Assembly (NCBI GenBank): GCA_019338205.1
Contig: GCA_019338205.1_4761.1
Source of the DNA: a phage
Strand: one strand, 5' to 3'
DNA: 64,000 bases
Of this stretch, positions 576 through 33,911 are shown in pieces (the first letter of the stretch is position 1; each line of letters opens with the position of its first letter). A model generated the notes under the pieces. The model worked only from the letters and a program-made list of their open reading frames with translations, had not been told where the DNA came from and did no database searches. Position numbers and translations under genes: made by a program.

Positions 576-1571
576 TTAGAACTCAAACAATACAGAAACA
601 AGTTCTGTTTGATCTAATGACCGAACGATAGGTTGTCGGTTTTCCATGTAGATCATTTCGCCTGAGTGTGGCTCTAAGTCTTGCGGTCGGTACTTATCTT
701 TGACCGCTTTAACGTCTGGATCGCTAGGGCGTGCTTTCTTTTCCAATGGGTTAAGGATAATGCTTAACTGACGGAAACCAGTATTACCCACTAACGCGGT
801 AGTTGGGAATTGCGCAGAGTCCATATAAGCCTGAAAACGCAAAGTTACTACTTTCAGCCGATAAAGCAGATTATAGTCATTATACCAGGTGATCACATTG
901 TCATAGCCCCAACGCGCCGGATCTTGTCGCAGTTCATCGGGGAACGGTACAACAATATGTTCATTGGTGCAACGGTTGATCGCCGCATCAGGTGGAATTG
1001 TGTACAGATATTCCCAACGATACCCATCACCCATATCAATAGAATCGCCCTTTCCTACAGGTGGCGCAATTGATTCATGAGTAGGTGTCCACTTTCCGCC
1101 CAACTTCAAACACTCTACTTTAGCGTCAATGCTTGAAATCGAGCAGTAACCGCGATCAGGAACATCGGTTACGCGATACACCATCCAGCCGCTACCAACA
1201 TCAGTTCGGTTATATGGTGCTGAGTTTACGACAACAATGTCATTGATAAAGAACGTGCGCGGGTTATCCTGTCCGGTATCACCCCAGTCTTTACGAGGGA
1301 TAACCGCATCAAGAAGTGATTTGTTAATCTTAACCGCCCCCATCATATGGGTCCACATGTCAACAACACCAGCCGTTGAATCGGTCGGATAAGGTGGGGC
1401 AAAGCCCACCTCTTTTTCGTTTTCTGACCACGGCTCCGAACGTCCAAACGTTCCATAAATTGTAATTTGATTTGCTCCATCGCCTACAGAATTATAGAAA
1501 TTCAGAAGTTTTTCCGTTCTGAATTGACTAGTAATGATTGAGCGATAGATCACACTATTTTCATTAGCCAT
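576..1571 (-). CDS. 8: baseplate wedge protein gp8
   Basis: 331 aa versus T4 gp8 334 aa; position after gene 7 in conserved order 53-5-6-7-8; start overlaps gene 7 stop. Confidence 0.75.
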   Translation of the reverse strand: MANENSVIYRSIITSQFRTEKLLNFYNSVGDGANQITIYGTFGRSEPWSENEKEVGFAPPYPTDSTAGVVDMWTHMMGAVKINKSLLDAVIPRKDWGDTGQDNPRTFFINDIVVVNSAPYNRTDVGSGWMVYRVTDVPDRGYCSISSIDAKVECLKLGGKWTPTHESIAPPVGKGDSIDMGDGYRWEYLYTIPPDAAINRCTNEHIVVPFPDELRQDPARWGYDNVITWYNDYNLLYRLKVVTLRFQAYMDSAQFPTTALVGNTGFRQLSIILNPLEKKARPSDPDVKAVKDKYRPQDLEPHSGEMIYMENRQPIVRSLDQTELVSVLFEF

Positions 1572-4500
1572 TAATTTTCCTCTGTGTCGGATTCTTCGGA
1601 TCGCGTGGATTCCCTATATTATCCTTCAACCGTTTATCTACAAGTTCACGGAACATAGAGAATGTTACCGCCGACTGGTCAAACAGTGGACTCATTGCAA
1701 ATCTTCGTTCGCTTGCTTTAAGTCCGTGGAACAATTCGCTGTTCTCCTGATCATATTCAGGGGGAACCGGAAATTCTTCACCAATTAAAGGTGAAGTCAA
1801 ATATAATGCTTTTCCGGTAAGCGGGTCAATCTTAATATTTCCATCAACATCAAGATCAGCAACACGATCAGGATACACGCTAGGCAATCCGCTGTCAAAC
1901 TTATAATTTTTCAGAGATTGAATTATAGTCTCGGTGTGCTTCATGCTCAACCCGCTGTTAATGAACATCGTAAGCAGGGTAACACCGATAAACCCAAAGC
2001 CGACAGGATGAACGAATCGCATTACATCATTTGCATAGCGCGAAACTGGCAATGCGCTTTTAATCTTCATGGTGTATTGGCTTCGTGAGCGGTTGATATA
2101 GTCGATTGAACTACTCAACAACTCTTTACCACGCACACCAACAAGGATCATCCCTTCAAACGCTGTTTTCTCTGATTTGATCACTTGACCTTCTTCGAAC
2201 CGCCCGATCAGGTTATGAATGGTTACTCGCCAGCGTAGGCGACCACCTTCATATTCCCTTTCAAGATACGTCACGTTAGCCCGTCCGGTTGGAGTATAAA
2301 TCGTGCGACCTACGATATCCTCGTCAATGTTCGTTGAACTAACAACAATATCATACTCTAGTCCGGCTTGTGATTCAACCTCAATTTCCACATCTTCATT
2401 ATAAAGTAACTTAAACAAGAACTTATAAGAAGCCTCCACGCCCTTAGTGGAATAAAAATCTGATTTGCGGGATTCAAAGAATCTTACTACCGCATCTCGC
2501 TTGTTTTTATCTGCATAGATGTTTCGTTTGTTCATCTCTGACCAAAGATACTCATATGCATCTTGCTCGCGTGGATATTTGTTTTTAATCAGATTTTTTA
2601 GTTTATTATAATATGTTCCTGAACCATCACTTAAGAATTGCAGATAATATTCAGAGAATTTTCTGAAATTTTCGTTCTCAAGCAAAAAGCTATCCGGTGT
2701 CATCTTATTCAGTAAAGGCCGCAAATCTGGATCTTGCTCTCGATCGTAGTGAACCGGAACCCAGGGAACCTCTCGGACCTGATTTTGCAGTTCAGCAACA
2801 AATGCTACATTTGTAGGCTTCCAATATACACCAACCTGATCACGAACGCGATAGTTAAATTGATAGAATCCTATGATCTCTCCTGTGTTTTTATGGAACA
2901 TTACACCGGATGCATATTGTTTGAATCCTTCAAATTTAACATTGTTAAGATAACAGGTCACGGTCCCTTTATCATAAACTTCTCGGTTGACCCTATTTTG
3001 GTCAAGAATGCCAGATGTATCAACTTCTTGAGTGTAGATAACCTCTGGATAAACAACCAACGGGCGATTATCATTTGTGATCCACACACGGACACCGTTT
3101 CGACGCATCCATGTATAATCGGCCTCATTATAATACGCTTGCGGTCCTAACTCCCAAATACGCAAATCATCATAACTTGCTCTGAAAGTAGTTTGATGTA
3201 TTTTCTTATCAGTTAGATAAGTTGGCTCCTGAGAATATTTTACAGCTTCGCCCAATTCATATTTCGCGGCAGTTTCTGGATCAGGTAAAATGCTTTCGAA
3301 GTGATGATTATAATGGCTTATGAACACCTCATCACCATTGGTTGACATATTACTGAACCCATGCTGAATATATTCCCTTTCCTGCGGAGTGTTGCCAAAT
3401 ACTCTCTGAAAAGACAGACCATCACTCCCTATCAAGTATACACCCGCATCATCTGACGGAACAACGTTTTCTGGTTTAGTTGGATCTTGATAACGCTGTT
3501 TAACTTCACCAGTAACAAATACAAGCAATTTACCGTCGATCACATCCATTTTCTGAATGACAGCTTTATCATTTCCTGTTACTCGAATAACATCAGGATC
3601 GAATATTTTTTCGCCAAACGTAGGCGAACCCTGTACGGTATCAACTGGAGTATTCTTAAGACGAATCCGGCGAATAACATCCTTAGCACCAACCCACAAA
3701 TAGTCATCACTACATGCCATAGCTTCGGCGTATTTTGTGGTGTCCCCTGTTAATCTGGAAAATACACCAAAGACCTCAACGTCAAAGCCTAAATCGTTCT
3801 CGTCACCAACCTTTGCAAAAGTGATCGTATCATCACTAAATCGAACATCGTCCGCGCTCCATCGAGTATCGCTCGCTTGTCGTCCGTAAAAGATTCGATC
3901 ATATCCTAAAACGTAAGTAGTGGTTTTAGACTGATAAACGCATGTACGGGAAACCGGATTGCCTACACGGTCATTAAAAGCCTTGTATGCTTTCCATGAT
4001 TGGCCTTTATCGTTCGACACCTTCACAATCGGCTGGAACCGTTCGAAAAGGTACAAAACACCGTTCATTTCCGCTAACATAGTGCGGTTTATATCAGTAC
4101 AAACTTTTTCTATGTGGTCCTGTATTTCATGAAAGTTCTCATCAACTACAATGTAGTTTGAGATATTTGTCATGTTTGCATATTCAGGACTAAAGACAAA
4201 ATCTTCCTTCATCAATGATGCTTGAATCAGGTCAGTATTAAACTTGACATACTCTCGATTATCGTATGTAAATTTTTCCTTTATAAACTCGTTTGCAAGG
4301 TTGAACTCTCGCATCATAGAAAAATTATATGCGTTTGTTTTAAATGTCTGAAACTCTTCTGTCTCAACCCATTTACTTTGTTCAAATCCTTCTGCGGCTA
4401 CTGCTACACGAAACTTGTAATAATATTCTGGAAAAAGGTTTTTATCCTCAAACCAGTTTTGGTCGGCAGTATATCCCAGGTTTACCCAGCTTAACTCATC

Positions 4501-4650
4501 GACGGGGATGATCTCCCCGTCTCGTGTTCTGGTTTCGGCTAACTCCACAAAATAAAAGAAGTTTTCGCCTACGTCATCCCATGTGATATACGCCTGATTA
4601 GCAGACAATTTTTCTATTGTCAAGCTAGTTACACTAGGCGCTTTAATCAT
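1564..4650 (-). CDS. 7: baseplate wedge protein gp7
   Basis: 1028 aa versus T4 gp7 1032 aa; synteny between genes 6 and 8; overlapping stop/start. Confidence 0.8.
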   Translation of the reverse strand: MIKAPSVTSLTIEKLSANQAYITWDDVGENFFYFVELAETRTRDGEIIPVDELSWVNLGYTADQNWFEDKNLFPEYYYKFRVAVAAEGFEQSKWVETEEFQTFKTNAYNFSMMREFNLANEFIKEKFTYDNREYVKFNTDLIQASLMKEDFVFSPEYANMTNISNYIVVDENFHEIQDHIEKVCTDINRTMLAEMNGVLYLFERFQPIVKVSNDKGQSWKAYKAFNDRVGNPVSRTCVYQSKTTTYVLGYDRIFYGRQASDTRWSADDVRFSDDTITFAKVGDENDLGFDVEVFGVFSRLTGDTTKYAEAMACSDDYLWVGAKDVIRRIRLKNTPVDTVQGSPTFGEKIFDPDVIRVTGNDKAVIQKMDVIDGKLLVFVTGEVKQRYQDPTKPENVVPSDDAGVYLIGSDGLSFQRVFGNTPQEREYIQHGFSNMSTNGDEVFISHYNHHFESILPDPETAAKYELGEAVKYSQEPTYLTDKKIHQTTFRASYDDLRIWELGPQAYYNEADYTWMRRNGVRVWITNDNRPLVVYPEVIYTQEVDTSGILDQNRVNREVYDKGTVTCYLNNVKFEGFKQYASGVMFHKNTGEIIGFYQFNYRVRDQVGVYWKPTNVAFVAELQNQVREVPWVPVHYDREQDPDLRPLLNKMTPDSFLLENENFRKFSEYYLQFLSDGSGTYYNKLKNLIKNKYPREQDAYEYLWSEMNKRNIYADKNKRDAVVRFFESRKSDFYSTKGVEASYKFLFKLLYNEDVEIEVESQAGLEYDIVVSSTNIDEDIVGRTIYTPTGRANVTYLEREYEGGRLRWRVTIHNLIGRFEEGQVIKSEKTAFEGMILVGVRGKELLSSSIDYINRSRSQYTMKIKSALPVSRYANDVMRFVHPVGFGFIGVTLLTMFINSGLSMKHTETIIQSLKNYKFDSGLPSVYPDRVADLDVDGNIKIDPLTGKALYLTSPLIGEEFPVPPEYDQENSELFHGLKASERRFAMSPLFDQSAVTFSMFRELVDKRLKDNIGNPRDPKNPTQRKING

Positions 4651-6551
4651 TGAGCAATTGCCTCCAGACTAATAGTTGTGTACTGAGGACGGAGATCGTT
4701 TTCAAACACGATCAAAGAACCGTCTTTAGTAAAGATGTTATCAGCAATCGGTTTAGCTATCAACTCAATATATGAACCAGTAAAGCGATCGCTATTGATA
4801 TTCAGTTTACCCAGATCCCATGAAATAAGGTCTTCATAATGCTGAACCTCTCCAACCTCAAAGTATAGGTCCGCACCGTCGATAACCTCTTTATCAAAAT
4901 CAGTGCCGGAATAGTGCGGTAAAGCGATTGCAGAACCAACAGGGAAAGGTCCAACCAGCAATTTAGCTAAACCGGATTCTTTGTTCATTTCTGTACTTAC
5001 ATAATGGATCGGATATTGCTTGTCGTCCTTTTCGAAGTTGAACGAACTAGACTTGATTCCGCTCTTATACTGGTTTAAAAACTTGATTCCGGCCATAGGT
5101 GCTTTATAGAAGTTGTCGATCTCTCGAACCATCTCGATTTCTGCACTAGAACCTATCACAGATACATCAGCTTTGTCAATACGAGCAAGCATTTTAGACT
5201 TACTAAATGTCTGGTTAAAAATTTCCACTTCGTCGGTATAATATGCATCAATCTGATCAATAACCGCACCGCGCAACCACTGCTCTGATTCTGACAAGTC
5301 ATTGATTGAATAGGAAACTTTAATATTCTGTTTAATATACAGATAGTTAGGGTCAATGATGCTCGGCGTGATAGGGGCAAGATTATATTTTGCCAGATAA
5401 TCCCGCATATCTTCTTTTTGAACAGTTGTCAAACGCAAGCCAGATTTAGGCTTAACAGCAACAAAAGCATAACCCGGTTTTTCTCGGTCGGTGAAACATT
5501 GTACCGCCTGAACAATACTACCAAAACGGCTAGACACAAAAGCCTCATAGTCGGAAGCAGTTACACAACGACGCTGAGATTCACGCATTACCGGAGCAAG
5601 TTCACGGATACGTTCGATTGATTCAGGATCACCACCACCATCTGCACCGACATAATCACGATCATTTGTCGGATTCTCAATAATTTTAACAATAGAGATA
5701 GATGCAAGGGTATCCGCATATGTAAAATTAACTGAACCGTTTGCTTCCGCGCCCTTAGTGCTAATATATTCGATAACAATATTAGCACCAGTTGACGGCT
5801 TAAGTCCACCAATATAATTTGCTTCCAGCGCCCCGCCAGCAGCAGATAAAGTTGATTCACCTTCACCAAAGAAGATTTCTGTATGACCGTCTACGGTTTC
5901 ACGCATATAGAAAATATTACTAGCGCCAGTTGCATTAACAATACTTTCTCGCGTCCAGTCTTTCCATTCAGCACCGTCTACCCACAACTTAACCTGAGCG
6001 CGGTCAATATCTGGATCGCGGATCAGAATTTGTTTCTTCGGATCAAATAACATTTCTGTACGAACAATACGACCTTGCGCGACTTTAAGCATAGGAGTAT
6101 ATAAACCATTTGAACCTAAAACGCTCACAACGTCTTCTGTAGTAACAAACGGATAAGACGTCTGGTGGTCCACACTTGCAATAAATTTAGTTCCTCGTGG
6201 GATTCGAATACTTGCCGGATTTCGCGGATGTGTTACGTGCAACATAATTGTAGTCGATGCACTAGTTTTACTTGCTGGCAAATATCCTAAATCTTGCGCG
6301 GCTTGAACAACTGAACTACGCTTAATTGCCGTTCTGATAAAAGATTCATATAGAGCGGCGTTGGCGAATTGCTGAATATAAAGGGTATTATATGCGAGCA
6401 AGTCCATCAATACGTTAATACCAGCACCATTAAAATCAAAATCTTTAAATTCTTCCTGGTTTCTCATCCAGTCTGTTAATGTGCTTTTAATTTCATCAAA
6501 CGTAGCAGCATTAAAAATATCAGGAATTTGTGTAATCTTTTGCTTTGTCAT
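4647..6551 (-). CDS. 6: baseplate wedge protein gp6
   Basis: 634 aa versus T4 gp6 660 aa; synteny downstream of 5.4. Confidence 0.8.
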
Positions 6552-6862
6552 TTTATGAATACCTTCGGTGATGCCATAGCGACGGTATCGCCACAGCTAA
6601 TACGATCTGCCATTTGAATTGCTTTCTTTCCGGTAACAAATACTTTCGGGGTACTGGCGACCGTAGTTCCCCCGTGTGTATCATAAGGCTTTGTTGTTTT
6701 TGTATGTGGTGTAATTGGGTCTCCTTCGACTAATACAGGGATACCCTCAACAAATACCTTAGATTGAGTTGCATTAATTATTGTCGGACCGTAATTACCA
6801 TGTCCAGTAGTTTTTGCTTTGTCATATGATAAACCAGCCATCAAAACCCCATCTTCATACAT
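6548..6862 (-). CDS. 5.4: gp5.4-like PAAR-repeat tail spike tip protein
   Basis: 104 aa, small beta-rich protein with PAAR-like G/P/H-rich sequence directly upstream of gene 6, as for T4 gp5.4. Confidence 0.65.
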
Positions 6863-7418
6863 CGTTTAATTTGTTAACTTTTGAATCTCTAGATAATGCA
6901 GCGGTGTTATAGGCAATCGCAGCGTCAATTTCATTATCAAATAGACCTAAACGGATTCGTTTTCCATTGGCTCTAATTCTAGCTTCCCACTTTTTGGAAT
7001 TTTTATTCCAATTAACACCAATATATGAAGATGTGCAATCGGATTGTTTATTTTGGTTGTACATTTGTTGAGTAACGGTTGCTGGTCTTAAATTGCTAAC
7101 TCGGTCGTCAAGGGAGTTTGTGTTAATATGATCTATTTGTAGTGGTTTTCTCGGAGTGTGTCCGTGATGCATATGATAAACAACATGAGACCTCTGAAAC
7201 TCTTTACCATCAACAGCAAGTCTCCAATATCTATATCCACATGGATTTATCTTCAATCCACCAACTAGACTTCCGGCTTTAGAACGTCCACGAGAGAACC
7301 TTCTATAAACCTTTCCGTCAACTTCATAAAATAGTTCATGTAGTCTATTATATAAAATTTCATCTTCTTTGGTGTAATGAATTACTTCAATCATATTATC
7401 CCTCACTTCTTCTAACAT
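6855..7418 (-). CDS. HNH homing endonuclease with C-terminal AP2 DNA-binding domain
   Basis: HNH motif (HMHHGH...IDHIN.N..DDR.SNLR) and AP2-like segment ([43 protein letters not shown]); true start probably internal ATG near 7394. Confidence 0.8.
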
Positions 7419-7965
7419 AATCTCTTAACTGTTTACTCCACACATCCCAATTTCCAAAAACGGTTTGAGTATAAACTTTCTCTATTGTGTGTTCGGTTAC
7501 TACCGGAGGCGGATTAGTTTCACCAGCACCCTCTCGGCTACTGGAACCACCACTATTTCCTTCACCAGAACCACCAGAAGACTCTGAAACAGATTGGATA
7601 TAGGTTAGGGTTACTTTATAAGTATAAACCTCCTGTAGACGTGTAGGAGCGTTAAAATAATATAGATCTGCGGTAGTTGGATCTGGTAAATCATCAAAAC
7701 TTCCGGCAGATTTTTTAATTCTATCTTTCGTTATATATTTAAGAGAATCCGCGCCAAGCGAAAAACTATCCAGATACTCACCAGATATTTTAGTTTCTTC
7801 AACGGTAACGCCCTTATTAGGGCGATACTCGCTGATCTTAAACTCTTTAATCGTGTATGTGGTATTTGCATCTGGTGGCGTTGCTTTATAAGAGAACACC
7901 ACCTCAAAGATTTCTCGCTCGCTGATATCCTCCAATTTTGAACTCATCGGAAGAATTTCAACCAT
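7396..7965 (-). CDS. gp5.1-like hypothetical protein
   Basis: 189 aa ORF immediately downstream of gene 5 on same strand; position corresponds to T4 5.1. Confidence 0.45.
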   Translation of the reverse strand: MVEILPMSSKLEDISEREIFEVVFSYKATPPDANTTYTIKEFKISEYRPNKGVTVEETKISGEYLDSFSLGADSLKYITKDRIKKSAGSFDDLPDPTTADLYYFNAPTRLQEVYTYKVTLTYIQSVSESSGGSGEGNSGGSSSREGAGETNPPPVVTEHTIEKVYTQTVFGNWDVWSKQLRDYVRRSEG

Positions 7966-7973
7966 TAGTTACC

Positions 7974-9773
7974 TCACCCAAGATCAATACGGCTACCATC
8001 AATTTTAACTGTACCAGATGCAATATCTTTAACGCTTGCACCACAATTACGGGACCAGTCACCATTAACCTGATCTGATTTAGTGCCATTGACGGTCATA
8101 TTAAAATTACCCTCAACGGTTAAATCATAGTTACCTTTAATTGTTTCGGTAGTGTTACCCTCGATCATTAATTCAGCATTACCCTTGACGTTAGCCGTCA
8201 AATTGGCGTCAAGCTGCGCGGTAACATCACCTACAACATGCATATTTGCAGTACCTTCAACGGTCTGATTAACATTGCCACGAATAAATTCAGTGACGTT
8301 ACCATCAACGGTTTGCATCACATTACCCATATAATAAACTTGCGCGTCACCTTCAACAACAACTTGCAGATTGCCTTTAACGTTGACTTTGCGACCTTGC
8401 TTAACGATCAAATAATCATCACCTTCAATCTTTTCTACCCTCGTTCCGTCCGGTCTGGTTTCTTCAAATGTACCAGAAGGATGTTTACGATGATAACGCT
8501 CGTGAGAAGGAGTATCATCAATCTCGATAATATGACCGCTCTCTGACTCGTACACATGGTTATATGGATACCTTGCAGAATACGAACTCTTAGGCTCTTT
8601 AAACATGATTCGTGTGTCTTGTGGGGTAAACGGTGCTTCTGGGTCTTCTTCTGCTCTCTGCGTCTTATAGGCAGCAATACGGGCATTTCTCAAACGTGCT
8701 CTCGGATCATCTGAAACAGTTTCCTCTTTCTTAGGAGCAATTACGCCATATGATTCTAAGTTGCCAGTAAGAATAATTTTAGAAACACGGCTGGAGCGTC
8801 CTGGAGTTTGATTAGCCCATACTGATTGACGTAATCCATCATAGGCTTGTTTCCATTCTTCCGCTAACATCGCAGCAAGACTATTCTTAAATTTACCCAA
8901 TCCACCAACGCCCATTTGAAACGCCATATTTTCTAATGCCATACGACGTGAGGCATTACATTTATTATAGACAGGTGCAATTCGTGGATGTTTGCGCATA
9001 TCACGACGAGTCTTTTCTATATCGTCAGCAAATACTTTACTAACTTCTTCGGCGGTAAGTCTTCCGTTTGTAACTTCACGCCCTACCAGCTTAGAAAGTT
9101 CATTATTGATAATACCCAGATCACTGGTTTTCTTATAAATGATCAAATGCCCGATGCCTATTGTCGGATATCCTTCTGAATCAAGATACCATTTCTCGCG
9201 ATATCCCTCATCGCCCCGCAGCATTTTTTCTATTGTAAAATCAGGATTATCATCAACCGGAATTTGGTCTAATGGCTCGTCGTCTGGATTTACTGCAACT
9301 CCAGTGTTTTCATCTCGAATATAGACACTATCAGGTTTTGTTGTTTGTCCGGTTTCTGGGTTAATACCGCCACGAGCAAGAATATTAACATCATTACCAA
9401 TATAACGAGGATATGCACCAGAAGGGTCGCAAAAACCTTCTGTAGTGAGTGGTTTCTCTGTATATTGTCCGGCAATAGTACCCAGAATAACGCAGTTTAA
9501 ATAACGTTCATCTAAAGCCAAACCAAATACCATTGAACCTTCAACAATACCAGTAGGGCTTTGACCTATACCGGAGATCGCCGCGCTTGTAATATCTTGT
9601 ACTGGCGTAATCCATAATAGATCTTCGGTTGGAAGACCTTGAATGTCACCGTGTGCGGATAGCGAAGGATGTATACCATGAATCCTAACCTGAACACGCC
9701 CCAGCATTAATGGGTCTTCCCTGTTTTCTACAATTCCGGTAAACCATTTAACGGAGTTATTAAACATTAGCAT
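7974..9773 (-). CDS. 5: baseplate hub / tail-associated lysozyme gp5
   Basis: 599 aa; T4-lysozyme-like motif DSEGYPTIGIGHLI; C-terminal beta-helix repeats (VxGxxxxx); N-terminal OB-fold region; T4 gp5 is 575 aa. Confidence 0.9.
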   Translation of the reverse strand: MLMFNNSVKWFTGIVENREDPLMLGRVQVRIHGIHPSLSAHGDIQGLPTEDLLWITPVQDITSAAISGIGQSPTGIVEGSMVFGLALDERYLNCVILGTIAGQYTEKPLTTEGFCDPSGAYPRYIGNDVNILARGGINPETGQTTKPDSVYIRDENTGVAVNPDDEPLDQIPVDDNPDFTIEKMLRGDEGYREKWYLDSEGYPTIGIGHLIIYKKTSDLGIINNELSKLVGREVTNGRLTAEEVSKVFADDIEKTRRDMRKHPRIAPVYNKCNASRRMALENMAFQMGVGGLGKFKNSLAAMLAEEWKQAYDGLRQSVWANQTPGRSSRVSKIILTGNLESYGVIAPKKEETVSDDPRARLRNARIAAYKTQRAEEDPEAPFTPQDTRIMFKEPKSSYSARYPYNHVYESESGHIIEIDDTPSHERYHRKHPSGTFEETRPDGTRVEKIEGDDYLIVKQGRKVNVKGNLQVVVEGDAQVYYMGNVMQTVDGNVTEFIRGNVNQTVEGTANMHVVGDVTAQLDANLTANVKGNAELMIEGNTTETIKGNYDLTVEGNFNMTVNGTKSDQVNGDWSRNCGASVKDIASGTVKIDGSRIDLG

Positions 9774-9784
9774 AATTAATCACC

Positions 9785-10339
9785 TTACACATCAGCCTTT
9801 TCCATTTCTCGAATGAATGCGTTAATAAATTGTTTAATTTGTGTAGGGTCTATGATCTTGATCTTGCGTCGTTCCTCATTGCGGAGGATCGCATCTTCCA
9901 GTGTGTCTACCGCCGATAATGCACCTTGAAACTGCAAATGACGATGATGAATATCCCCTTTATCATACCAATTGCTTGATCCTTTCGGATATTCTGTAAG
10001 ATTCCAATACTTGTTTCCGTCAATATCAACATGGTATAATACTTGATTTCCTCCTACATTTGCATATCGTTGTTCGGCTGATTCATATGCTGTCTCTTGA
10101 TCGGTGATCCAGTCATGAAACGGATCGTATACGTCATTAAGCATCAGCAAGATCCAGTAAAGTTGTTGGTTTCCGTATACTTCATATGCAACTTGTTCCG
10201 GTCGTGGACTACCTTGAATGTAATATGTTTGTATGTTATAATCAGAAATTATTGCGTTGAAATATGCGCGGTAATTGCGCACAATGTCAGTAATCATCTT
10301 GCCGTTGTATTCAATGGCAGGGAAGAAAGAAAAGAGCAT
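9785..10339 (-). CDS. 53: baseplate wedge protein gp53
   Basis: 184 aa; N-terminus MLFSFFPAIEY resembles T4 gp53 (MLFTFFDPIEY); directly upstream of gene 5. Confidence 0.8.
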   Translation of the reverse strand: MLFSFFPAIEYNGKMITDIVRNYRAYFNAIISDYNIQTYYIQGSPRPEQVAYEVYGNQQLYWILLMLNDVYDPFHDWITDQETAYESAEQRYANVGGNQVLYHVDIDGNKYWNLTEYPKGSSNWYDKGDIHHRHLQFQGALSAVDTLEDAILRNEERRKIKIIDPTQIKQFINAFIREMEKADV

Positions 10340-10371: not shown

Positions 10372-10379
10372 TATTTATA
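10372..10379 (-). promoter_or_regulatory. T4-type late promoter TATAAATA for the 53-5-6-7-8 operon
   Basis: exact TATAAATA on minus strand about 33 nt upstream of gp53 ATG. Confidence 0.6.
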
Positions 10380-17952: not shown

Positions 17953-17981
17953 TTGACACCAGATCCGGCCTATAGCATAAT
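17953..17981 (+). promoter_or_regulatory. early promoter cassette TTGACA-N17-CATAAT
   Basis: TTGACA 17953-17958, CATAAT 17976-17981, conserved leader. Confidence 0.6.
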
Positions 17982-18027
17982 ACACCCATCGAAACGAAAC
18001 ACACTTTCTTAAACGGAGAATCAAATT

Positions 18028-27004: not shown

Positions 27005-27290
27005 GACTATCATTAATCTTGTTGTGTGGACTTTTATTTTCGTTATTGTTATTATGGCGGGTGTAGAGATTGTAAAACAATATCTATTGCAATCTCGAAA
27101 TAAACATGTTGTCGTTGATATGGACTCGCAAGGCAATAAGTTGATCCGGTTAGAAGATGGTCGGGAATATTGGGTCGGGTATCCCAAAACTCTGAAAGGG
27201 TTTATCCTTGCCATGAGCATTAACATCTTTTTCATTGGTATCTGGACTTATATCGGTTTAGGTCTTGTTGGATTTTTGGAGATTAATTAA
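26997..27290 (+). CDS. membrane protein (97 aa, two hydrophobic segments)
   Basis: ORF track; directly upstream of tk. Confidence 0.45.
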   Translation: MLETIINLVVWTFIFVIVIMAGVEIVKQYLLQSRNKHVVVDMDSQGNKLIRLEDGREYWVGYPKTLKGFILAMSINIFFIGIWTYIGLGLVGFLEIN

Positions 27291-27886
27291 TGGCGCAATT
27301 ATATTTCTACTATGCATCTATGAACGCTGGCAAATCAACTTCTCTGTTACAAAGTGCTTATAACTATACCGAACGTGATATGCGAGTATTAATTCTTAAG
27401 CCAGCGATTGATAATCGAGATTCAGAAAGTGAAGTCGTTTCCCGAATTGGCCTAAGTGCCCCAGCGATCACCTTCACTAAATCGGATGATCTTTTCGATT
27501 TGGTTTATCGTGAATCGTTAGGTAAGCGTAGACCGGATCGATGGCGTCCAGATGCAGTTTTTGTAGACGAAGCCCAATTTATGACTAAAGAGCATGTTTT
27601 AGGCTTGTGTGCGCTTGTTGATGATGCTAATATCCCTGTACTGTGCTATGGCCTTCGCACTGACTTTCAGGGCAATCTATTTGAAGGATCTGCGGCATTA
27701 ATGGCATTTGCTGATAAGCTGGTCGAAATGAAGGGTATTTGTCATTGTGGCAAGAAAGCGACTATGGTCCTTCGCGTAGATAAAGATGGTAATGTTATTC
27801 GCGATGGTGCTCAAATAGAAGTTGGTGCAGAGGATAAATATGTTTCGGTGTGCCGTAAACATTTTATTGACGGTACTACCAAATAA
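27290..27886 (+). CDS. tk: thymidine kinase
   Basis: MAQLYFYYASMNAGKSTSLLQSAYNY P-loop and C-terminal Cys cluster typical of Tdk. Confidence 0.95.
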   Translation: MAQLYFYYASMNAGKSTSLLQSAYNYTERDMRVLILKPAIDNRDSESEVVSRIGLSAPAITFTKSDDLFDLVYRESLGKRRPDRWRPDAVFVDEAQFMTKEHVLGLCALVDDANIPVLCYGLRTDFQGNLFEGSAALMAFADKLVEMKGICHCGKKATMVLRVDKDGNVIRDGAQIEVGAEDKYVSVCRKHFIDGTTK

Positions 27887-27913: not shown

Positions 27914-27921
27914 TATAAATA
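27914..27921 (+). promoter_or_regulatory. T4-type late promoter TATAAATA (inside loop of 9-bp inverted repeat)
   Basis: exact TATAAATA; flanked by ccccagatt 27906-27914 and aatctgggg 27936-27944; 33 nt upstream of ATG 27954. Confidence 0.45.
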
Positions 27922-27953
27922 TAACTGAATATTTCAATCTGGGGGAATGACTT

Positions 27954-28256
27954 ATGTCATTTATTCGTAAAACTCTAACAGCGGCAATATGCTTGACTGC
28001 GGTCGGAAGTGTCAGTGCTGATCAATATGATCCAACTGGTGACTTTACTGATTATTTCGACGGCGCAATGATAGTATATGTAAACAAAATATCTCCTTCC
28101 ATTGAAACCAGCCAGAAATTTCATGCCCATATTATGAAGATGTATGCTCGTAGTAAATGTATGGATTCTAGGCAGTGTTTTATTATGGGTGGATATGCCG
28201 CACAACAATTTGTTCTGTTGCATAATATGGAGAATCGAGAACATGAAATTCAGTGA
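27954..28256 (+). CDS. secreted/periplasmic protein (100 aa)
   Basis: signal peptide ending VSA; downstream of late-promoter motif. Confidence 0.5.
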   Translation: MSFIRKTLTAAICLTAVGSVSADQYDPTGDFTDYFDGAMIVYVNKISPSIETSQKFHAHIMKMYARSKCMDSRQCFIMGGYAAQQFVLLHNMENREHEIQ

Positions 28257-28641
28257 TTTTCTAAAGACTTCCGAAGAGGGAAAGGCTAATAAAGTTGACC
28301 GCTTTATCGGTGAATGTCTGATGAGTGTTACTTATATGCATTCTGCGCATTTTGGGGTAACTGGTCCTGGATCTTATGCAAAACATAAGGCTCTAGAAGA
28401 GTTCTATCTTGAAATGCAAGAATTGGTTGATAATTTCACTGAAACCAATATTGGGATCACTGGTCGTTATCAGCCAAAGTTGGTCGTCCGCAAGGAGATT
28501 AGCGAAATTGCCTATTTGCAAGAGTTAACGCAAATGGCTAGTGAGATTTATAATGATGTTGATAGCTCGTTACAGAGTGTTTTAGACGATATCAAAGCTC
28601 TATGCTTTAAAACAATTTATAAACTCACTCGACTGGCTTAA
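28243..28641 (+). CDS. hypothetical protein (132 aa)
   Basis: ORF track frame; ATG 28243 with SD GGAG. Confidence 0.45.
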   Translation: MKFSDFLKTSEEGKANKVDRFIGECLMSVTYMHSAHFGVTGPGSYAKHKALEEFYLEMQELVDNFTETNIGITGRYQPKLVVRKEISEIAYLQELTQMASEIYNDVDSSLQSVLDDIKALCFKTIYKLTRLA

Positions 28642-28875
28642 TGTTAGTCACCGTGGGATGCATACCATAAGTAAAAGAATACTAGCATTAACACAACTAT
28701 TTGGCTTCCTCATACTTTCGCGTGTTCAATTACTGCCGAATCGGAAGACCCGTCTAAGACGAGGAAGGGTTATCATTGGAAAGGGATGGTGAATTGGTTA
28801 CTATGTTTAACTAGTTTAGCAAAGGTCGATTCAAACACTACTATACAAATGGACGTGAATAAAATATAATCAAAA

Positions 28876-28898
28876 GCCATCCGAAAGGGTGGCTTTTT
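28876..28898 (+). terminator. intrinsic terminator
   Basis: gccatcc-gaaa-gggtggc hairpin plus TTTTT. Confidence 0.65.
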
Positions 28899-28910
28899 CG
28901 TTTTTATGTG

Positions 28911-28939
28911 TTGACAACCGGAATAGGGTATAGCATAAT
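28911..28939 (+). promoter_or_regulatory. early promoter cassette TTGACA-N17-CATAAT
   Basis: TTGACA 28911-28916, CATAAT 28934-28939, conserved leader. Confidence 0.6.
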
Positions 28940-28968
28940 GCACACATCGACAACAAAGGAGAATCAAA

Positions 28969-29178
28969 ATGATTAATCCAGTAGCCGCAGCACTTGCTTC
29001 CGAAGAAACTTTGAAGTATATGGTAGAACATGCAGCAAAGAAAGGAGAAATTGTTACTGCCGATGAGATCGTAGAAACCATGCTCCGCGATCCGAATGGT
29101 AACACTGCAAAGTTTTTCGGTGATCATCTTAAACTGGCTTACAAAACAATTATGGAGACCGTGAAAAATGCAAAATGA
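28969..29178 (+). CDS. hypothetical early protein (69 aa)
   Basis: ORF track; cassette leader. Confidence 0.45.
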   Translation: MINPVAAALASEETLKYMVEHAAKKGEIVTADEIVETMLRDPNGNTAKFFGDHLKLAYKTIMETVKNAK

Positions 29179-29506
29179 TGTGATTGAAGTTATTATGAAT
29201 CAATACCGAAACCGGATTTGGTCTGGACGTATCAAAGAAGAAAAGGCAAAACGGATCATCGAAAAATATGCTGAAAAGACTAAGCAAGCGCCAACGGCTA
29301 ACAGAGTTATGATTCTTAAATGTCTGGTGCTTTCCGGTGACGATATGCCTATTGATGCAGAGACAGCCACCGATTTTCATAAGACCTATCGCCAGTGTGA
29401 TGTAATTTTTACTTCTGGCTTCGGTAGTTATGACTCTATTATGTGGAATTTAATGCACCTTGACGCAACGATCTGGGATGTACTTTCGGAGGAGGGTTAC
29501 AAATGA
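29168..29506 (+). CDS. hypothetical protein (112 aa)
   Basis: ORF track. Confidence 0.4.
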   Translation: MQNDVIEVIMNQYRNRIWSGRIKEEKAKRIIEKYAEKTKQAPTANRVMILKCLVLSGDDMPIDAETATDFHKTYRQCDVIFTSGFGSYDSIMWNLMHLDATIWDVLSEEGYK

Positions 29507-29853
29507 ACATTGACATTCAACGACTAATTGATCACCTTCACGCGGGAATACCTTATCATGGCGACGTTACCCGTGATATTCTTGATGTGTTGGAATATAC
29601 CCAGCAAGTGATCAACGAAAAGCAAGCATTAGAATCACGGATCGACGAGGCAATAGGAAACATTGCAACCGAAGATGAATTAGATAATCACTTTGGACCT
29701 GTTCTTGATGCTCTTATGGCTGCGCGTGATACCAAACTGAAACAGGATAAACAAGAATTTATCCTTGATGGTTTAGCTCGTTATCACAATGCAATTGATA
29801 TTATGAATAACCAGCATGATTATGCTATTAGTGTTTTGCGAGGTCTGGCATGA
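29503..29853 (+). CDS. hypothetical protein (116 aa)
   Basis: ORF track; ATGA overlap. Confidence 0.4.
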   Translation: MNIDIQRLIDHLHAGIPYHGDVTRDILDVLEYTQQVINEKQALESRIDEAIGNIATEDELDNHFGPVLDALMAARDTKLKQDKQEFILDGLARYHNAIDIMNNQHDYAISVLRGLA

Positions 29854-30134
29854 AAGACACAAACGAATTTAACTGTATTCAGGTAAGCCCGAATTTTATT
29901 GTTCCATCACTGGTGACTAAGCTGAATGGTCATATGGTCGCTTTGTCTTCCACACCGCCAGAATCAGGAAAGTTTATTACTATCGTAGTTTATGCGGGGC
30001 AAATTTTCTCTCATGATTGCTGCATGAAAAATGGTCAGTTGATGGTTGCAAATTATGACTACGGCGACCTTGAATGGGAAGTTTTAGGACTGGCTAAATG
30101 CGCTGAAATTCTGGGCTATATTCGATTAATTTAA
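29850..30134 (+). CDS. hypothetical protein (94 aa)
   Basis: ORF track; ATGA overlap. Confidence 0.4.
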   Translation: MKDTNEFNCIQVSPNFIVPSLVTKLNGHMVALSSTPPESGKFITIVVYAGQIFSHDCCMKNGQLMVANYDYGDLEWEVLGLAKCAEILGYIRLI

Positions 30135-30152
30135 ATTTTTTCTTAGAAAGTG

Positions 30153-30181
30153 TTGACAGCGATCCGGTGTCATTGCATAAT
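30153..30181 (+). promoter_or_regulatory. early promoter cassette TTGACA-N17-CATAAT
   Basis: TTGACA 30153-30158, CATAAT 30176-30181, conserved leader. Confidence 0.6.
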
Positions 30182-30222
30182 ACACCCATCGAAACGAGAT
30201 ACACTTTCTAGGAGAATCAAAA

Positions 30223-30444
30223 ATGGCAACTGTTAAAATTATCAAATCTTCCGCTGGTTTCGGTTTCATGCGTGGAGCTAAGTACCCGATGATTATTGAA
30301 AACGTTGCCATCGAAGATGGTATGGCTAAAGTGACCAGCCGTCAATTGTTCGAAGCTGGTGTTAAAACTGCTGAATCATGGGCGCTTCGTTACCCAAACA
30401 AAACTTGGTCTTTCTTCCTGAATGGAGAAGCAGAGGTCATCTAA
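30223..30444 (+). CDS. small protein, KIEIID-like paralog family
   Basis: VKIIKSSAGFGFMRGAKYPMIIE resembles ORFs at 32793, 33009, 33266. Confidence 0.45.
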   Translation: MATVKIIKSSAGFGFMRGAKYPMIIENVAIEDGMAKVTSRQLFEAGVKTAESWALRYPNKTWSFFLNGEAEVI

Positions 30445-30462
30445 GTAATATTATTAATCAAT

Positions 30463-30485
30463 GCCCCTTAAATGGGGCTTTTCTT
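30463..30485 (+). terminator. intrinsic terminator
   Basis: gcccc-ttaaat-ggggc hairpin plus TTTTCTT. Confidence 0.6.
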
Positions 30486-30498
30486 GTGAGGAAACTTT

Positions 30499-31278
30499 AT
30501 GGCAATATCTTCTGGATGGGTAGGATCATCTGCTGTGTCCGAGACTGGTCAACGGTGGATGAGCGCCGCAATGCAAGCTGTTCGCTTAGGTCGTCCGGCG
30601 TATATGTCGGCAATGGTCGGACGCTCTAAAGAGATTCATTATAGCATTGGCGCTAGTAATAGTTACAATAAAGATACGCTTATTAACTGGATGAAAGCAC
30701 AGTGATCTACTCCGGTAGTAATTACTATCACTGGTAATATTGTTTCCCAATCTACTGGCGTTCCTTGTCTTGACTTCCCTAGCTCGTTAACAAATGAATA
30801 TGTAACATTGATCATTAACTCCGGTGTTCATGTTTGGGGGCGTGGTGGTAATGGTGGCAATAACTCCGCTGGTGGTGCTGGTGGTAATGCAATAAATAAC
30901 GGAATTGGAACTAGATTACGTATTAACAACAATGGTGTTATCGCAGGCGGCGGTGGCGGTGGAGGTGGTGGGTATTATTCTCCTACGAAACCAATGAAAT
31001 TAACTTTTGGTGGTGGCGGCGGTCGTCCGTTTGGTGCTGCTGGTGGATCTGCCAACATGCAATCAGGCGCAACTGCTGGTACTATTTCCGCGCCAGGTAA
31101 AGGGTCTGTCAACGGTGTATATAATGGCGGTAACGGTGGTGATGCTGGCGGTGCTGGTGGTAAATGTAATATCCGTGGACAGGGATCGGAATATAATGGC
31201 GGTGCGGCTGGTAAGGCTGTTACTGGCAATGCCCCTCGCTGGGATAAAGTAGGCACGATCTACGGTGCTCGCGTGTAA
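30499..31278 (+). pseudogene. gp38-like glycine-rich tail fibre adhesin gene interrupted by in-frame TGA (pseudogene or readthrough)
   Basis: single 780-nt frame; stop TGA at 30703-30705; N-part GWVGSSAVSETGQRWM and Gly-rich C-part (GRGGNGG, GGGGGGGGG, FGGGGGRPFG) resemble T2-type gp38; downstream part has no ATG or SD. Confidence 0.5.
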
Positions 31279-31284
31279 TTTTAT

Positions 31285-31317
31285 GGGCTATCCTTCGGGA
31301 TAGCCTTTTTGTTTTTT
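31285..31317 (+). terminator. intrinsic terminator
   Basis: ggctatcc-ttcg-ggatagcc hairpin plus T-run. Confidence 0.75.
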
Positions 31318-31322
31318 GGGTG

Positions 31323-31350
31323 TTGACAATGAAAATCATAGTGCTATAAT
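31323..31350 (+). promoter_or_regulatory. early promoter cassette TTGACA-N16-TATAAT
   Basis: TTGACA 31323-31328, TATAAT 31345-31350. Confidence 0.6.
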
Positions 31351-31379
31351 GCACACATACCAACTAAGGAGAATCAAAG

Positions 31380-31670
31380 ATGACCGCTGAACAATTAATC
31401 AAACATATCCGCAACATTATTTGGGATCTGTCTGGTGATAAAGAGGAACAGGCTGAACGCATTTTAGCTAAACTCTATGAGCGCCGTGACCGTGGAGTAT
31501 CCGTAAAGAAAGTAGAAACTTTCAAAGAGTTATCTTTCATCGAAGCTAAAAAGGATGGATTAATTTATCAGTTGACAGATGGTTACTGGTGCTATGATAA
31601 TACTCGCTATGACACCGCGACTGATGCATTAAAAGCATGTAATGACCATCTTCGCAAAACTACCATTTGA
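31380..31670 (+). CDS. hypothetical early protein (96 aa)
   Basis: ORF track; cassette leader. Confidence 0.45.
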   Translation: MTAEQLIKHIRNIIWDLSGDKEEQAERILAKLYERRDRGVSVKKVETFKELSFIEAKKDGLIYQLTDGYWCYDNTRYDTATDALKACNDHLRKTTI

Positions 31671-31680
31671 GGATTATAAT

Positions 31681-31878
31681 ATGAGGGTTAAAACATTGGC
31701 TGATATGGATGAGATCGAGACTCAAGTACATGCGGCGCTAGTCGGTTATGAGTTCGGGCGATTCCTTAATAAGTTCCATGATTATAAATGCTTAAATTGT
31801 GGTGCTCATAACGTAATTGGTGCTTGCTGTATTAATCCTGTTATAGTACCATATAAAAGAAATGAAACAGAAGAGTGA
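31681..31878 (+). CDS. small Cys-containing protein
   Basis: ATG 31681 with SD GAGGAT; CLNCGAHNVIGACC. Confidence 0.4.
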   Translation: MRVKTLADMDEIETQVHAALVGYEFGRFLNKFHDYKCLNCGAHNVIGACCINPVIVPYKRNETEE

Positions 31879-31888
31879 GGAACATAGA

Positions 31889-32107
31889 ATGAAGACCAAC
31901 GAATCAGTAATACCGCCAGCTTTCGGTCGCATTCCTATAGTTATCACAAAGTCAAATATGTCTTTCGTTGAGGTTGGCGAGCGTACACACATAACAACGA
32001 TGCACGGAAAACAGTATATTTGGTCATCTTTCTGTAAATCGTATGAGCTTTTAAGCTGGGCGATTGATGTATGGAAAATTGAATATGAAGTAATTACAGA
32101 AGAGTGA
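31889..32107 (+). CDS. small protein, PAFG-ITKSN paralog family
   Basis: PAFGRIPIVITKSNMSFVEVGERTHITTM resembles C-terminus of next ORF. Confidence 0.45.
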   Translation: MKTNESVIPPAFGRIPIVITKSNMSFVEVGERTHITTMHGKQYIWSSFCKSYELLSWAIDVWKIEYEVITEE

Positions 32108-32117
32108 GGAATACAAA

Positions 32118-32552
32118 ATGAAAAAGTTGATGGCTACATTTCATGACATGCGAGATCTACCAGGTTTAGCACATATCGATTTTCCTGTTACTATGGAAGT
32201 GTCGGAATATGACGGTTATCATGATATTCTGTTCATTAAAAATACTGAGTTTATCCGCTTAGGCGCTAAACCTGCTGTGCTATACCCAGAAGGAAACCGG
32301 ACAGCGGTCAGAAAAACAAATTCTGTTAAATTGGCATTTAGTTCAGATGTTGACTTGGAACCAGCTTTCGGATATACTCCTGTCGAGATCACAAAATCGA
32401 ATACTTCTTTCGTGAAAGTAGGAGAGAAAACGCATATTTCAACTATGCAAGACGGTACACAATATCTATGGTCCGATTTCTGCCAGCGTTATGAGCGTTT
32501 ATCATGGGCTACCCGCTTATGGTGTGTTGAGTATAAGGAGATCACAAAATGA
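32118..32552 (+). CDS. protein with C-terminal PAFG-ITKSN domain
   Basis: C-terminal PAFGYTPVEITKSNTSFVKVGEKTHISTM...LSWA paralogous to previous ORF. Confidence 0.45.
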   Translation: MKKLMATFHDMRDLPGLAHIDFPVTMEVSEYDGYHDILFIKNTEFIRLGAKPAVLYPEGNRTAVRKTNSVKLAFSSDVDLEPAFGYTPVEITKSNTSFVKVGEKTHISTMQDGTQYLWSDFCQRYERLSWATRLWCVEYKEITK

Positions 32553-32803
32553 TCACCGGATATATTCCATATTCAACAACAAAACATATTGTCGGATTCG
32601 AAGACATAGAAAAGTCTTGCTTTCCTCTCAAGGTTGAAGTAGACTTTATTACAGCGAACGGGTGGGCTTATGTTACCGTAGAAGAAATGAAGCGCGTAGG
32701 GTGGGAAAACTGCATACACCTACCGCATCTTATCCTAGATGTTCGCGCTGGTGAAATTGATATTGCTGGAAAGATCTATGGAGACAATGTAAATGAAAAT
32801 TGA
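32549..32803 (+). CDS. hypothetical protein (84 aa)
   Basis: ORF track; ATGA overlap. Confidence 0.4.
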   Translation: MITGYIPYSTTKHIVGFEDIEKSCFPLKVEVDFITANGWAYVTVEEMKRVGWENCIHLPHLILDVRAGEIDIAGKIYGDNVNEN

Positions 32804-32990
32804 AATTATTGATGATGGTGGATTTTCTTTCATGAATGGCGTTAAACTTCCTATCATCGTGGAAGGTCGTCGTTATGGGCTTGATTATCTTGTAGAAACG
32901 CAGGAACTACAAAAAGCTGGCGTGCCAATTAAAGGTTATTTTCCTGAGTATGAATGGTGTTTTCGTGCAAATGAAGCCTGGGCGGTATAA
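32793..32990 (+). CDS. small protein, KIEIID paralog family
   Basis: MKIEIIDDGGFSFMNGVKLPIIVEG...YEWCF. Confidence 0.45.
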   Translation: MKIEIIDDGGFSFMNGVKLPIIVEGRRYGLDYLVETQELQKAGVPIKGYFPEYEWCFRANEAWAV

Positions 32991-33008
32991 CTAATTGAGG
33001 ATTATATT

Positions 33009-33266
33009 ATGAAGATTGAAATTATTGACCGTGCTGGGTATACTTTCATGGAAAAAGTTAAACTTCCTATCATTGTTGAAGGTCGACCCTTATGTCAAGG
33101 ATTCATGATAAAGACCAGAGAACTACGAAATGCGGGTGTTCCTGTTGAATCATGTTTCGGTGATGATTATGAATGGTGTTTCAGTGGTTTTCGTGCACAT
33201 AAAGTAAAAGAAGCACGAAAAGCGTCATGGTTTGCTCGCTTTAATAACTGGTTGAGGAATCTGTGA
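33009..33266 (+). CDS. small protein, KIEIID paralog family
   Basis: MKIEIIDRAGYTFMEKVKLPIIVEG...YEWCF. Confidence 0.45.
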   Translation: MKIEIIDRAGYTFMEKVKLPIIVEGRPLCQGFMIKTRELRNAGVPVESCFGDDYEWCFSGFRAHKVKEARKASWFARFNNWLRNL

Positions 33267-33604
33267 TGTGTGAAATGAAAAAGTATATGATTCTAAGTGA
33301 TTCAGGATACACCTTCTTACAAGGTATTGATAGTGACTCGCGTCCTATTGTATATGGAAAAGAACATCCGACCATTCTTGGGATCATTCTTGTTACGACA
33401 AGATCACTTCGTCGAGTGTCGGAAAGCCCATACCTACAAAACGTAAAGCAAGACCGAGAATGGGCTTTCGAGTTAGGTAAAGATCTTGTTGAGTGGGTAA
33501 ACTGTGAAGACAAGAACCAACGAAATCATGAAAGGAAGATTGCACGAAATGTACATAGAAAAAAACTTGATGAAATCAAAAACAGGATTCTACAATCAAT
33601 GTAA
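33266..33604 (+). CDS. protein with KIEIID-like N-domain and basic C-terminus
   Basis: YMILSDSGYTFLQGIDSDSRPIVYG; ATG 33266 with SD GAGGAA. Confidence 0.4.
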   Translation: MCEMKKYMILSDSGYTFLQGIDSDSRPIVYGKEHPTILGIILVTTRSLRRVSESPYLQNVKQDREWAFELGKDLVEWVNCEDKNQRNHERKIARNVHRKKLDEIKNRILQSM

Positions 33605-33824
33605 TAGGGTATTCATCGTCCTTCTGGATTCAGAAAACTATCCAGAACTCTCTAAAACGCGTTTTCCGTGCGTTGTTGAAGCACACAAGGCATATGCACC
33701 AGATAAACAGTTTATCGTTATGGCGAGCGAAATAGAGAGGTTAGGGGCGATCCCTAAACATGATGAATATGTGTTTCGTAAGGCGTTCTCTGTGCCTCAT
33801 TTTGGTGTAGAGTTAATTCACTAA
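33570..33824 (+). CDS. hypothetical protein (start uncertain)
   Basis: ORF track frame; overlaps previous gene; no clear SD. Confidence 0.3.
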   Translation: MKSKTGFYNQCNRVFIVLLDSENYPELSKTRFPCVVEAHKAYAPDKQFIVMASEIERLGAIPKHDEYVFRKAFSVPHFGVELIH

Positions 33825-33839
33825 AATCATAAAAAGTTG

Positions 33840-33868
33840 TTGACAGGGGATCGCGTATCCCCTATACT
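33840..33868 (+). promoter_or_regulatory. early promoter cassette with spacer hairpin (TTGACA-gggga.tcccc-TATACT)
   Basis: TTGACA 33840-33845; palindrome ggggatcgcgtatcccc fills the 17-nt spacer; TATACT 33863-33868. Confidence 0.55.
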
Positions 33869-33911
33869 ACACACATCAAAACGAAACACACTTTTCTTAA
33901 GGAGAATCAAA

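Follow-up and report, generated by a model that had tools for sequence, protein, structure and literature searches.

In the gp38 adhesin of phage S16, an N-terminal helical bundle attaches the protein to the tip of gp37, and a short linker leads from this bundle to a β-helix and a polyglycine sandwich that bears the receptor-binding loops (PMC6851490, PMC12032242). The corresponding gene, g38, follows gene 37 in T2, T6, and S16, and is displaced from the gene 37 locus in RB49 (PMC3157838); RB49-like phages are reported to lack additional receptor-binding proteins (PMC9569957). In T2-type fibres g38 is essential: DT2 Δg38 forms plaques only if gp38 is provided in trans (PMC12892980), and survival of T6 g38 amber mutants requires reversion or suppression (PMC3157838). 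Here we analyse a stretch of phage DNA of 64,000 nucleotides (hereafter, the window) in which a g38 frame is broken by a single TGA codon, and we conclude that this stop is most likely a genuine and recent opal mutation in an otherwise regular g38.

By its sequence the window is a Krischvirus (RB49-like) coliphage genome. A 1.6-kb region and the 24-kb stretch that surrounds it show 88–97% nucleotide identity to genomes of this group, and no identical record for the region was present among the nucleotide matches to RB49-like phages. An intact g38 of 777–783 nt is annotated at the same locus in RB49, 011D4, GEC-3S, Whisky, E26, ELT4, PHB13, JK32, Sf20, Makalu_002, and JEP8, and the same arrangement around the gene recurs in ten further assembled contigs held by NCBI, ENA, and Logan. 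The window gene is situated between homologues of ORF080 and ORF078, downstream of tk (27290–27883) and rI (27954–28253) and at a distance from gene 37; this is the displaced locus of the RB49 type. Its upstream neighbour in all relatives is a small conserved ORF of 73 amino acids, the homologue of RB49 ORF080c (30223–30444, + strand). The initial annotation had called the gene an ectopic and possibly spare adhesin. Neither term is applicable, because every RB49-like relative examined holds g38 here between the same neighbours (see also PMC3157838) and because RB49-like phages are reported to be devoid of additional receptor-binding proteins (PMC9569957); a second gp38-like sequence was not found within the 64-kb window. 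We thus regard the window gene as the regular, single-copy long-tail-fibre adhesin gene at the site typical of the group. Comparison with the g38 genes of PHB13, 011D4, ELT4, E26, and GEC-3S shows the same locus, neighbours, promoter and terminator framing, and length (259–260 codons), whereas codon 69 is GGA or GGG in Krischvirus g38 and TGA in the window, which also carries a few private substitutions in the variable loops.

The gene is framed by sequence elements that resemble those of early cassettes. A σ70-type early promoter-like site (TTGACA-17-CATAAT, 11 of 12 matches; 30153–30181, + strand) is located 5′ of the 73-amino-acid ORF and g38, and the GEC-3S record annotates a promoter at the equivalent position. 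Directly 5′ of the g38 ribosome-binding site is a terminator-like GC hairpin (30463–30478) with its T-run (30463–30484 in all, + strand), annotated as a terminator in GEC-3S, and a second terminator-like hairpin (9 bp, 31285–31306) with a T-run (31285–31316, + strand) is found 3′ of the gene, where both GEC-3S and Makalu_002 have an annotated terminator. The description of the gene as lying between two terminators near tk thus holds. A sequence motif matching a perfect σ70 promoter (12 of 12, with TG) follows at 31323–31350 on the + strand, and the hairpin and promoter-like site together (31285–31350) make up an element of the promoter-early stem-loop (PeSL) type bounding the cassette, as described for RB49 and phi1 (PMC4122927).

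Although its product is a late virion protein, g38 shares its strand with early genes (27914–31350, + strand) and directly follows a terminator-like hairpin. No late-promoter motif was found near g38, the nearest on the + strand being TATAAATA at 27914, before rI; the same motif is present at 10372–10379, beside large − strand ORFs (576–10339) whose size and order suggest baseplate genes. The annotated relatives checked share this arrangement. The + strand has three copies of a 23-nt stretch, GCATAATACACCCATCGAAACGA (17975–17997, 18937–18959, and 30175–30197); each includes the −10 box and the beginning of the leader of an early-type promoter, in line with the repeated PeSL cassettes of RB49 and phi1. 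The small neighbouring ORFs include paralogous sets (30223–30444, 32793–32990, and 33009–33266; also 31862–32107 and 32118–32552). One set has the common N-terminus M..KIEIID..G..FM..VKLPIIVEG, and another shares ...ITKSN.SFV.VGE.THI.TM...Y.WS.FC..YE.LSWA....

Read directly from the sequence, the g38 frame runs from the ATG at 30499 to the TAA at 31276–31278 and is interrupted solely by the TGA at 30703–30705, in agreement with the single in-frame stop that had been noted previously. A Shine–Dalgarno sequence, GAGG (30488–30491, + strand), is positioned 7 nt 5′ of the start codon. The 5′ part of the gene (30499–30705, + strand) consists of 68 codons and the premature TGA, covers the N-terminal gp37-attachment region recognized by Pfam as Gp38_N, and appears in the ORF list as an ATG-initiated ORF of 68 amino acids. 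The 3′ part (30706–31278, + strand), composed of 190 codons and the TAA, encodes an intact β-helix and polyglycine receptor-binding domain and lacks a start of its own, the next canonical in-frame start in the list being the TTG at 30808. The peptides GWVGSSAVSETGQRWM, INWMKAQ, GRGGNGG, GGGGGGGGGYYSP, and FGGGGGRPFG are all found in this frame. In the ELT4 (L008, 472–1179) and JEP8 (L013, 470–1177) records, as well as in loci L023 and L024, the g38 coding sequence is called from a start downstream of the conserved ATG (708 nt in ELT4 and JEP8). The full 780-nt frame from the conserved ATG is nevertheless open, and such late-start calls would leave protein databases with a truncated N-terminal attachment domain.

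When codon 69 is taken to be Gly, the conceptual product has 259 residues and was compared with gp38 proteins and profiles. Residues 45–259 match the Pfam GP38 family (PF05268) over the full profile (1–218 of 218) with an E-value of 1.3e-72, and residues 1–40 match Gp38_N (PF21721) with an E-value of 3.9e-18 (65.6 bits, against a cut-off of 25). The product also matches PHROG 2056, annotated as ‘tail fiber protein; host specificity’ (2.9e-102), and its residues 1–257 align end to end with residues 1–247 of S16 gp38 (PDB 6F45, chain D; E = 5.7e-50), which shares the Gly of codon 69. Alignment with the relatives shows that the glycine-rich motifs of the window protein are all conserved. The order of domains is that of S16, T2, and T6 gp38 (PF21721 and PF05268; 6F45 chain D), with an attachment region followed by the β-helix and the polyglycine sandwich; the differences are that g38 follows gene 37 in those three phages, whereas in the window, as in RB49, it occupies an early-type cassette region, and that the window frame is interrupted. 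The similarity to T2/T6-type gp38 proposed in the initial annotation is thus borne out. In every sequence feature tested except an unbroken frame, which in the window allele is cut by the TGA at codon 69, the gene corresponds to a T2/T6/S16-type gp38 adhesin and an orthologue of RB49 g38, and the allele is accordingly best described as a nonsense mutant of an orthologous g38.

We extracted g38 from every relative locus retrieved. All 21 distinct relatives have the terminal stop only, and in each the conserved ...INWMKAQ is followed by Gly (GGA, except for GGG in E26). When the DNA is aligned with that of 011D4, RB49, and GEC-3S, the sole difference at this codon is GGA in the relatives versus TGA in the window, and in a multiple alignment of positions 28900–32600, T30703 is private to the window, with G in 16 of 16 aligned loci. 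The lesion thus corresponds to a single G-to-T substitution, as had been guessed from the codon itself, which converts Gly69 (GGA) to the opal codon TGA (30703–30705, + strand) and is private to the window genome. A 40-mer containing the TGA gave no match in a phage collection, although this test was too strict, given that the GGA control matched only 4 records; an exact 34-mer scan of IMG/VR likewise gave 0 matches, and a protein-based locus search of IMG/VR recovered 1 locus only. A literature search for natural gp38 nonsense alleles returned nothing relevant.

The initial annotation had also raised the possibility of an assembly error. The 68-residue product is on record at NCBI as EHU9813598.1 (‘hypothetical protein KZ558_000545 [Escherichia coli]’), from a contig of 165,715 bp, and it is also encoded on a Logan contig of run SRR15243799. 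That contig is 100% identical to positions 30181–31243 of the window, TGA included, and a second Logan contig of the same run is 100% identical to positions 31322–33883. The NCBI and Logan assemblies represent two assemblers and, apparently, one sequencing run; their agreement at 30703 indicates that the T was read from the data, and an assembly error is unlikely. When about 95 annotated E26 proteins were mapped onto positions 16.8–64 kb of the window, g38 alone contained an internal stop and none of the genes was split by a frameshift, and because no other lesion of either kind was seen, the quality of the consensus can be considered good. An artefact of sequencing or consensus calling, or a mixed population, with G as the true or majority base and T as an error or a minority variant, would draw on the origin of both contigs in what seems to be a single run, on an unexplained Logan contig end at 31243 that could hint at heterogeneity or low coverage, and on the location of the substituted base next to a GATC (Dam) site. 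Against this explanation stand the recovery of the same base by two different assemblers, the non-homopolymer context of the substitution, and the high consensus quality across the ~95 genes, and we consider it unlikely. The proximity of GATC would be relevant only with nanopore reads, and ~95 genes without a single frameshift speak against data from nanopore alone. A literature search on run SRR15243799 returned nothing relevant.

The Logan assembly of this run is in pieces of 1–2.5 kb in this region, with breaks at 30181 and 31322 that coincide with promoter elements (L004, L025). A further break, at 31243, falls within the 3′ end of g38; no repeat that would explain it was found in the window or its relatives, and it could reflect coverage or sample heterogeneity.

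The sequence 3′ of the opal codon bears on its age. The ratio dN/dS in this part is 0.06 against PHB13 and 0.12–0.19 against other relatives, values within the 0.05–0.26 obtained for pairs of intact genes. The conceptual gp38 is 98.1% identical to that of PHB13 whereas the DNA is ~94% identical, so most differences between the two are synonymous, and an unusual-looking residue, N143, is also present in an intact relative of 261 amino acids (P0003). Because relaxed selection is not seen, the stop is judged to be recent, and g38 downstream of it shows no sign of decay in these comparisons. The earlier characterization of the gene as decaying is thus not sustained, there being one lesion only and a dN/dS of 0.06 beyond it. 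The distance from gene 37 and the flanking terminator-like hairpins could be taken to indicate an old pseudogene, a decaying spare adhesin whose role in receptor binding has passed to another protein. This locus, though, is the normal one for RB49-like phages (PMC3157838), the single lesion is followed by a reading frame with dN/dS of 0.06–0.19 and all glycine-rich motifs intact, the window has no other gp38-like sequence, and RB49-like phages are reported without additional receptor-binding proteins (PMC9569957). Long-standing loss of function is therefore very improbable.

The substitutions that distinguish the window from its relatives are unevenly distributed. Within positions 28900–32600, 11 of the 13 private substitutions are in g38, ten of them between 30913 and 31068, and those in g38 fall mostly in two clusters (30913–30930 and 31047–31068). 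The first 204 nt of g38 are identical to those of ELT4, and the receptor-binding part is nearest in protein sequence to PHB13. This mosaic pattern, usual for such adhesins, fits an exchange of segments with donors that have not been sampled.

We next consider whether full-length gp38 could be produced from this allele. No restart led by a Shine–Dalgarno sequence was found after the TGA: canonical in-frame starts are limited to TTG 30808, ATG 30994, and ATG 31057, and none of the three has such a sequence, consistent with the earlier remark that the downstream part lacks its own start signals. The 64-kb window contains no tRNA gene, suppressor tRNAs included, there is no Rfam match, and no stable RNA structure is predicted 3′ of the UGA (fold z = +0.29). 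The one route to the full-length protein that could be identified is the misreading of UGA by near-cognate Trp-tRNA. Coliphage Qβ produces its minor capsid protein, A1, through leaky readthrough of UGA. This precedent lends some appeal to programmed recoding of the window stop, whether by regulated UGA readthrough, selenocysteine insertion, or bypassing, that would yield a defined ratio of short to long product. The window, in contrast to Qβ A1, has neither a conserved stop nor a favourable context, and so gives no sign of design: a stop at codon 69 is seen in 0 of 21 relatives, the window provides no stable downstream structure, Rfam element, or suppressor tRNA, and the base that follows its UGA is U, which at the +4 position is reported to lower readthrough (PMC5289835). 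Programmed recoding is thus extremely unlikely. Of the earlier proposal of a readthrough product, unprogrammed leakiness is the part that stands. In reporters in E. coli K-12, UGA readthrough amounts to ~2% at 37°C and ~4% at 25°C (PMC10570021); because a U follows the stop, readthrough is probably below ~2% here.

The preferred reading, a recent opal mutation in the regular g38, leads to a simple model of its consequences. Translation from the normal ATG and Shine–Dalgarno sequence would mostly end after 68 residues, and the main product would be the N-terminal attachment module without the β-helix or the polyglycine receptor-binding domain. The 68-residue fragment includes the whole Gp38_N match and corresponds in the alignment to residues 1 to ~70 of S16 gp38, and a single-sequence AlphaFold model of it, at low confidence (pLDDT 58), gives three helices and puts the end of the third at residue 67. 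We infer that this product is an attachment module lacking the receptor-binding head. Misreading of UGA by host Trp-tRNA would give rise to rare full-length adhesin with Trp at position 69, the short fragment could compete with it for the fibre tips, and residual infectivity, if any, would stem from this leakiness. A rough estimate that assumes complete adhesin on 1–2% of fibres places at least one working fibre on ~10% of particles and three on ~1 in 10,000. The phage is thus probably strongly attenuated or defective in adsorption, or non-viable, on an ordinary host.

Precedents for adhesin loss come from T6 g38am and DT2 Δg38, which are conditional lethal or need gp38 in trans (PMC3157838, PMC12892980). 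The window allele likewise has a premature stop; those mutants, however, are laboratory amber and deletion alleles, whereas the window carries an opal codon in a genome assembled from the reads of a bacterial isolate. This origin also provides a point against our explanation, in that a phage with its sole adhesin knocked out should not propagate and yet was sufficiently abundant for a full-length contig to be assembled. This abundance calls for leakiness, complementation, or a very recent sweep. The ~100 kb of the genome beyond the window, gene 37 included, could conceivably encode a compensating change or another adhesin.

Short ORFs with Gp38_N alone also occur elsewhere. A search for homologues of the 68-residue fragment gave no more than 8 short proteins. 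Four of these (P0009, P0010, P0005, and P0011) were considered as parallels to the window allele and rejected, as each has Gp38_N alone and lies next to tail-fibre genes in a different context; of the four checked, three are on bacterial assembly contigs, one also with metabolic genes. The Gp38_N-only ORFs, of 51–100 amino acids (L014, 2501–2656; L015, 2501–2725; L016, 2501–2779; L017, 2501–2803; L018; and L019), are situated downstream of tail-fibre genes with Gp34_trimer and Peptidase_S74 domains, and those on NCBI records named E. coli or Shigella sonnei have as neighbours a transposase fragment in L014 or metabolic genes in L015. Such ORFs resemble what would be left of gp38-type adhesin genes in cryptic prophages.

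The provenance of the window also invites a selective reading, in which the opal allele is favoured in bacterial culture because a leaky, poorly adsorbing phage persists with its host in a carrier state, the 68-residue fragment perhaps capping gp37 in a dominant-negative manner. If so, the gp37 tips would be capped by abundant fragment, with a small number of complete adhesins arising from rare UGA readthrough, and such a knock-down would explain how a virulent T4-like genome came to be co-assembled with an E. coli isolate. The phage contig does derive from an assembly labelled as an ‘E. coli’ isolate, of the stop codons in E. coli UGA is the leakiest, and the window stop falls just after the region that aligns with the attachment part of S16 gp38 (see also the low-confidence three-helix model). 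These points are purely circumstantial, a stable carrier state has no support, and g38 is intact in every other Krischvirus contig that public assemblies and metagenomes yielded, making selection for the opal allele quite improbable.

The window is thus a case of a private, recent mutation and presents no new kind of gene or mechanism. The family, structure, and role of the gene and its unusual RB49-like position have all been published, the opal mutation is the only particular of this genome, and the finding has little general biological weight. It does have a practical side, in that annotation pipelines split the gene and record a 68-amino-acid ‘hypothetical protein’ (EHU9813598.1), such that gp38-based prediction of host range would overlook or misinterpret the gene. 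Should the phage from this isolate be viable, the allele would offer a natural measure of the minimal adhesin need of a T-even-type phage, a small but testable question.
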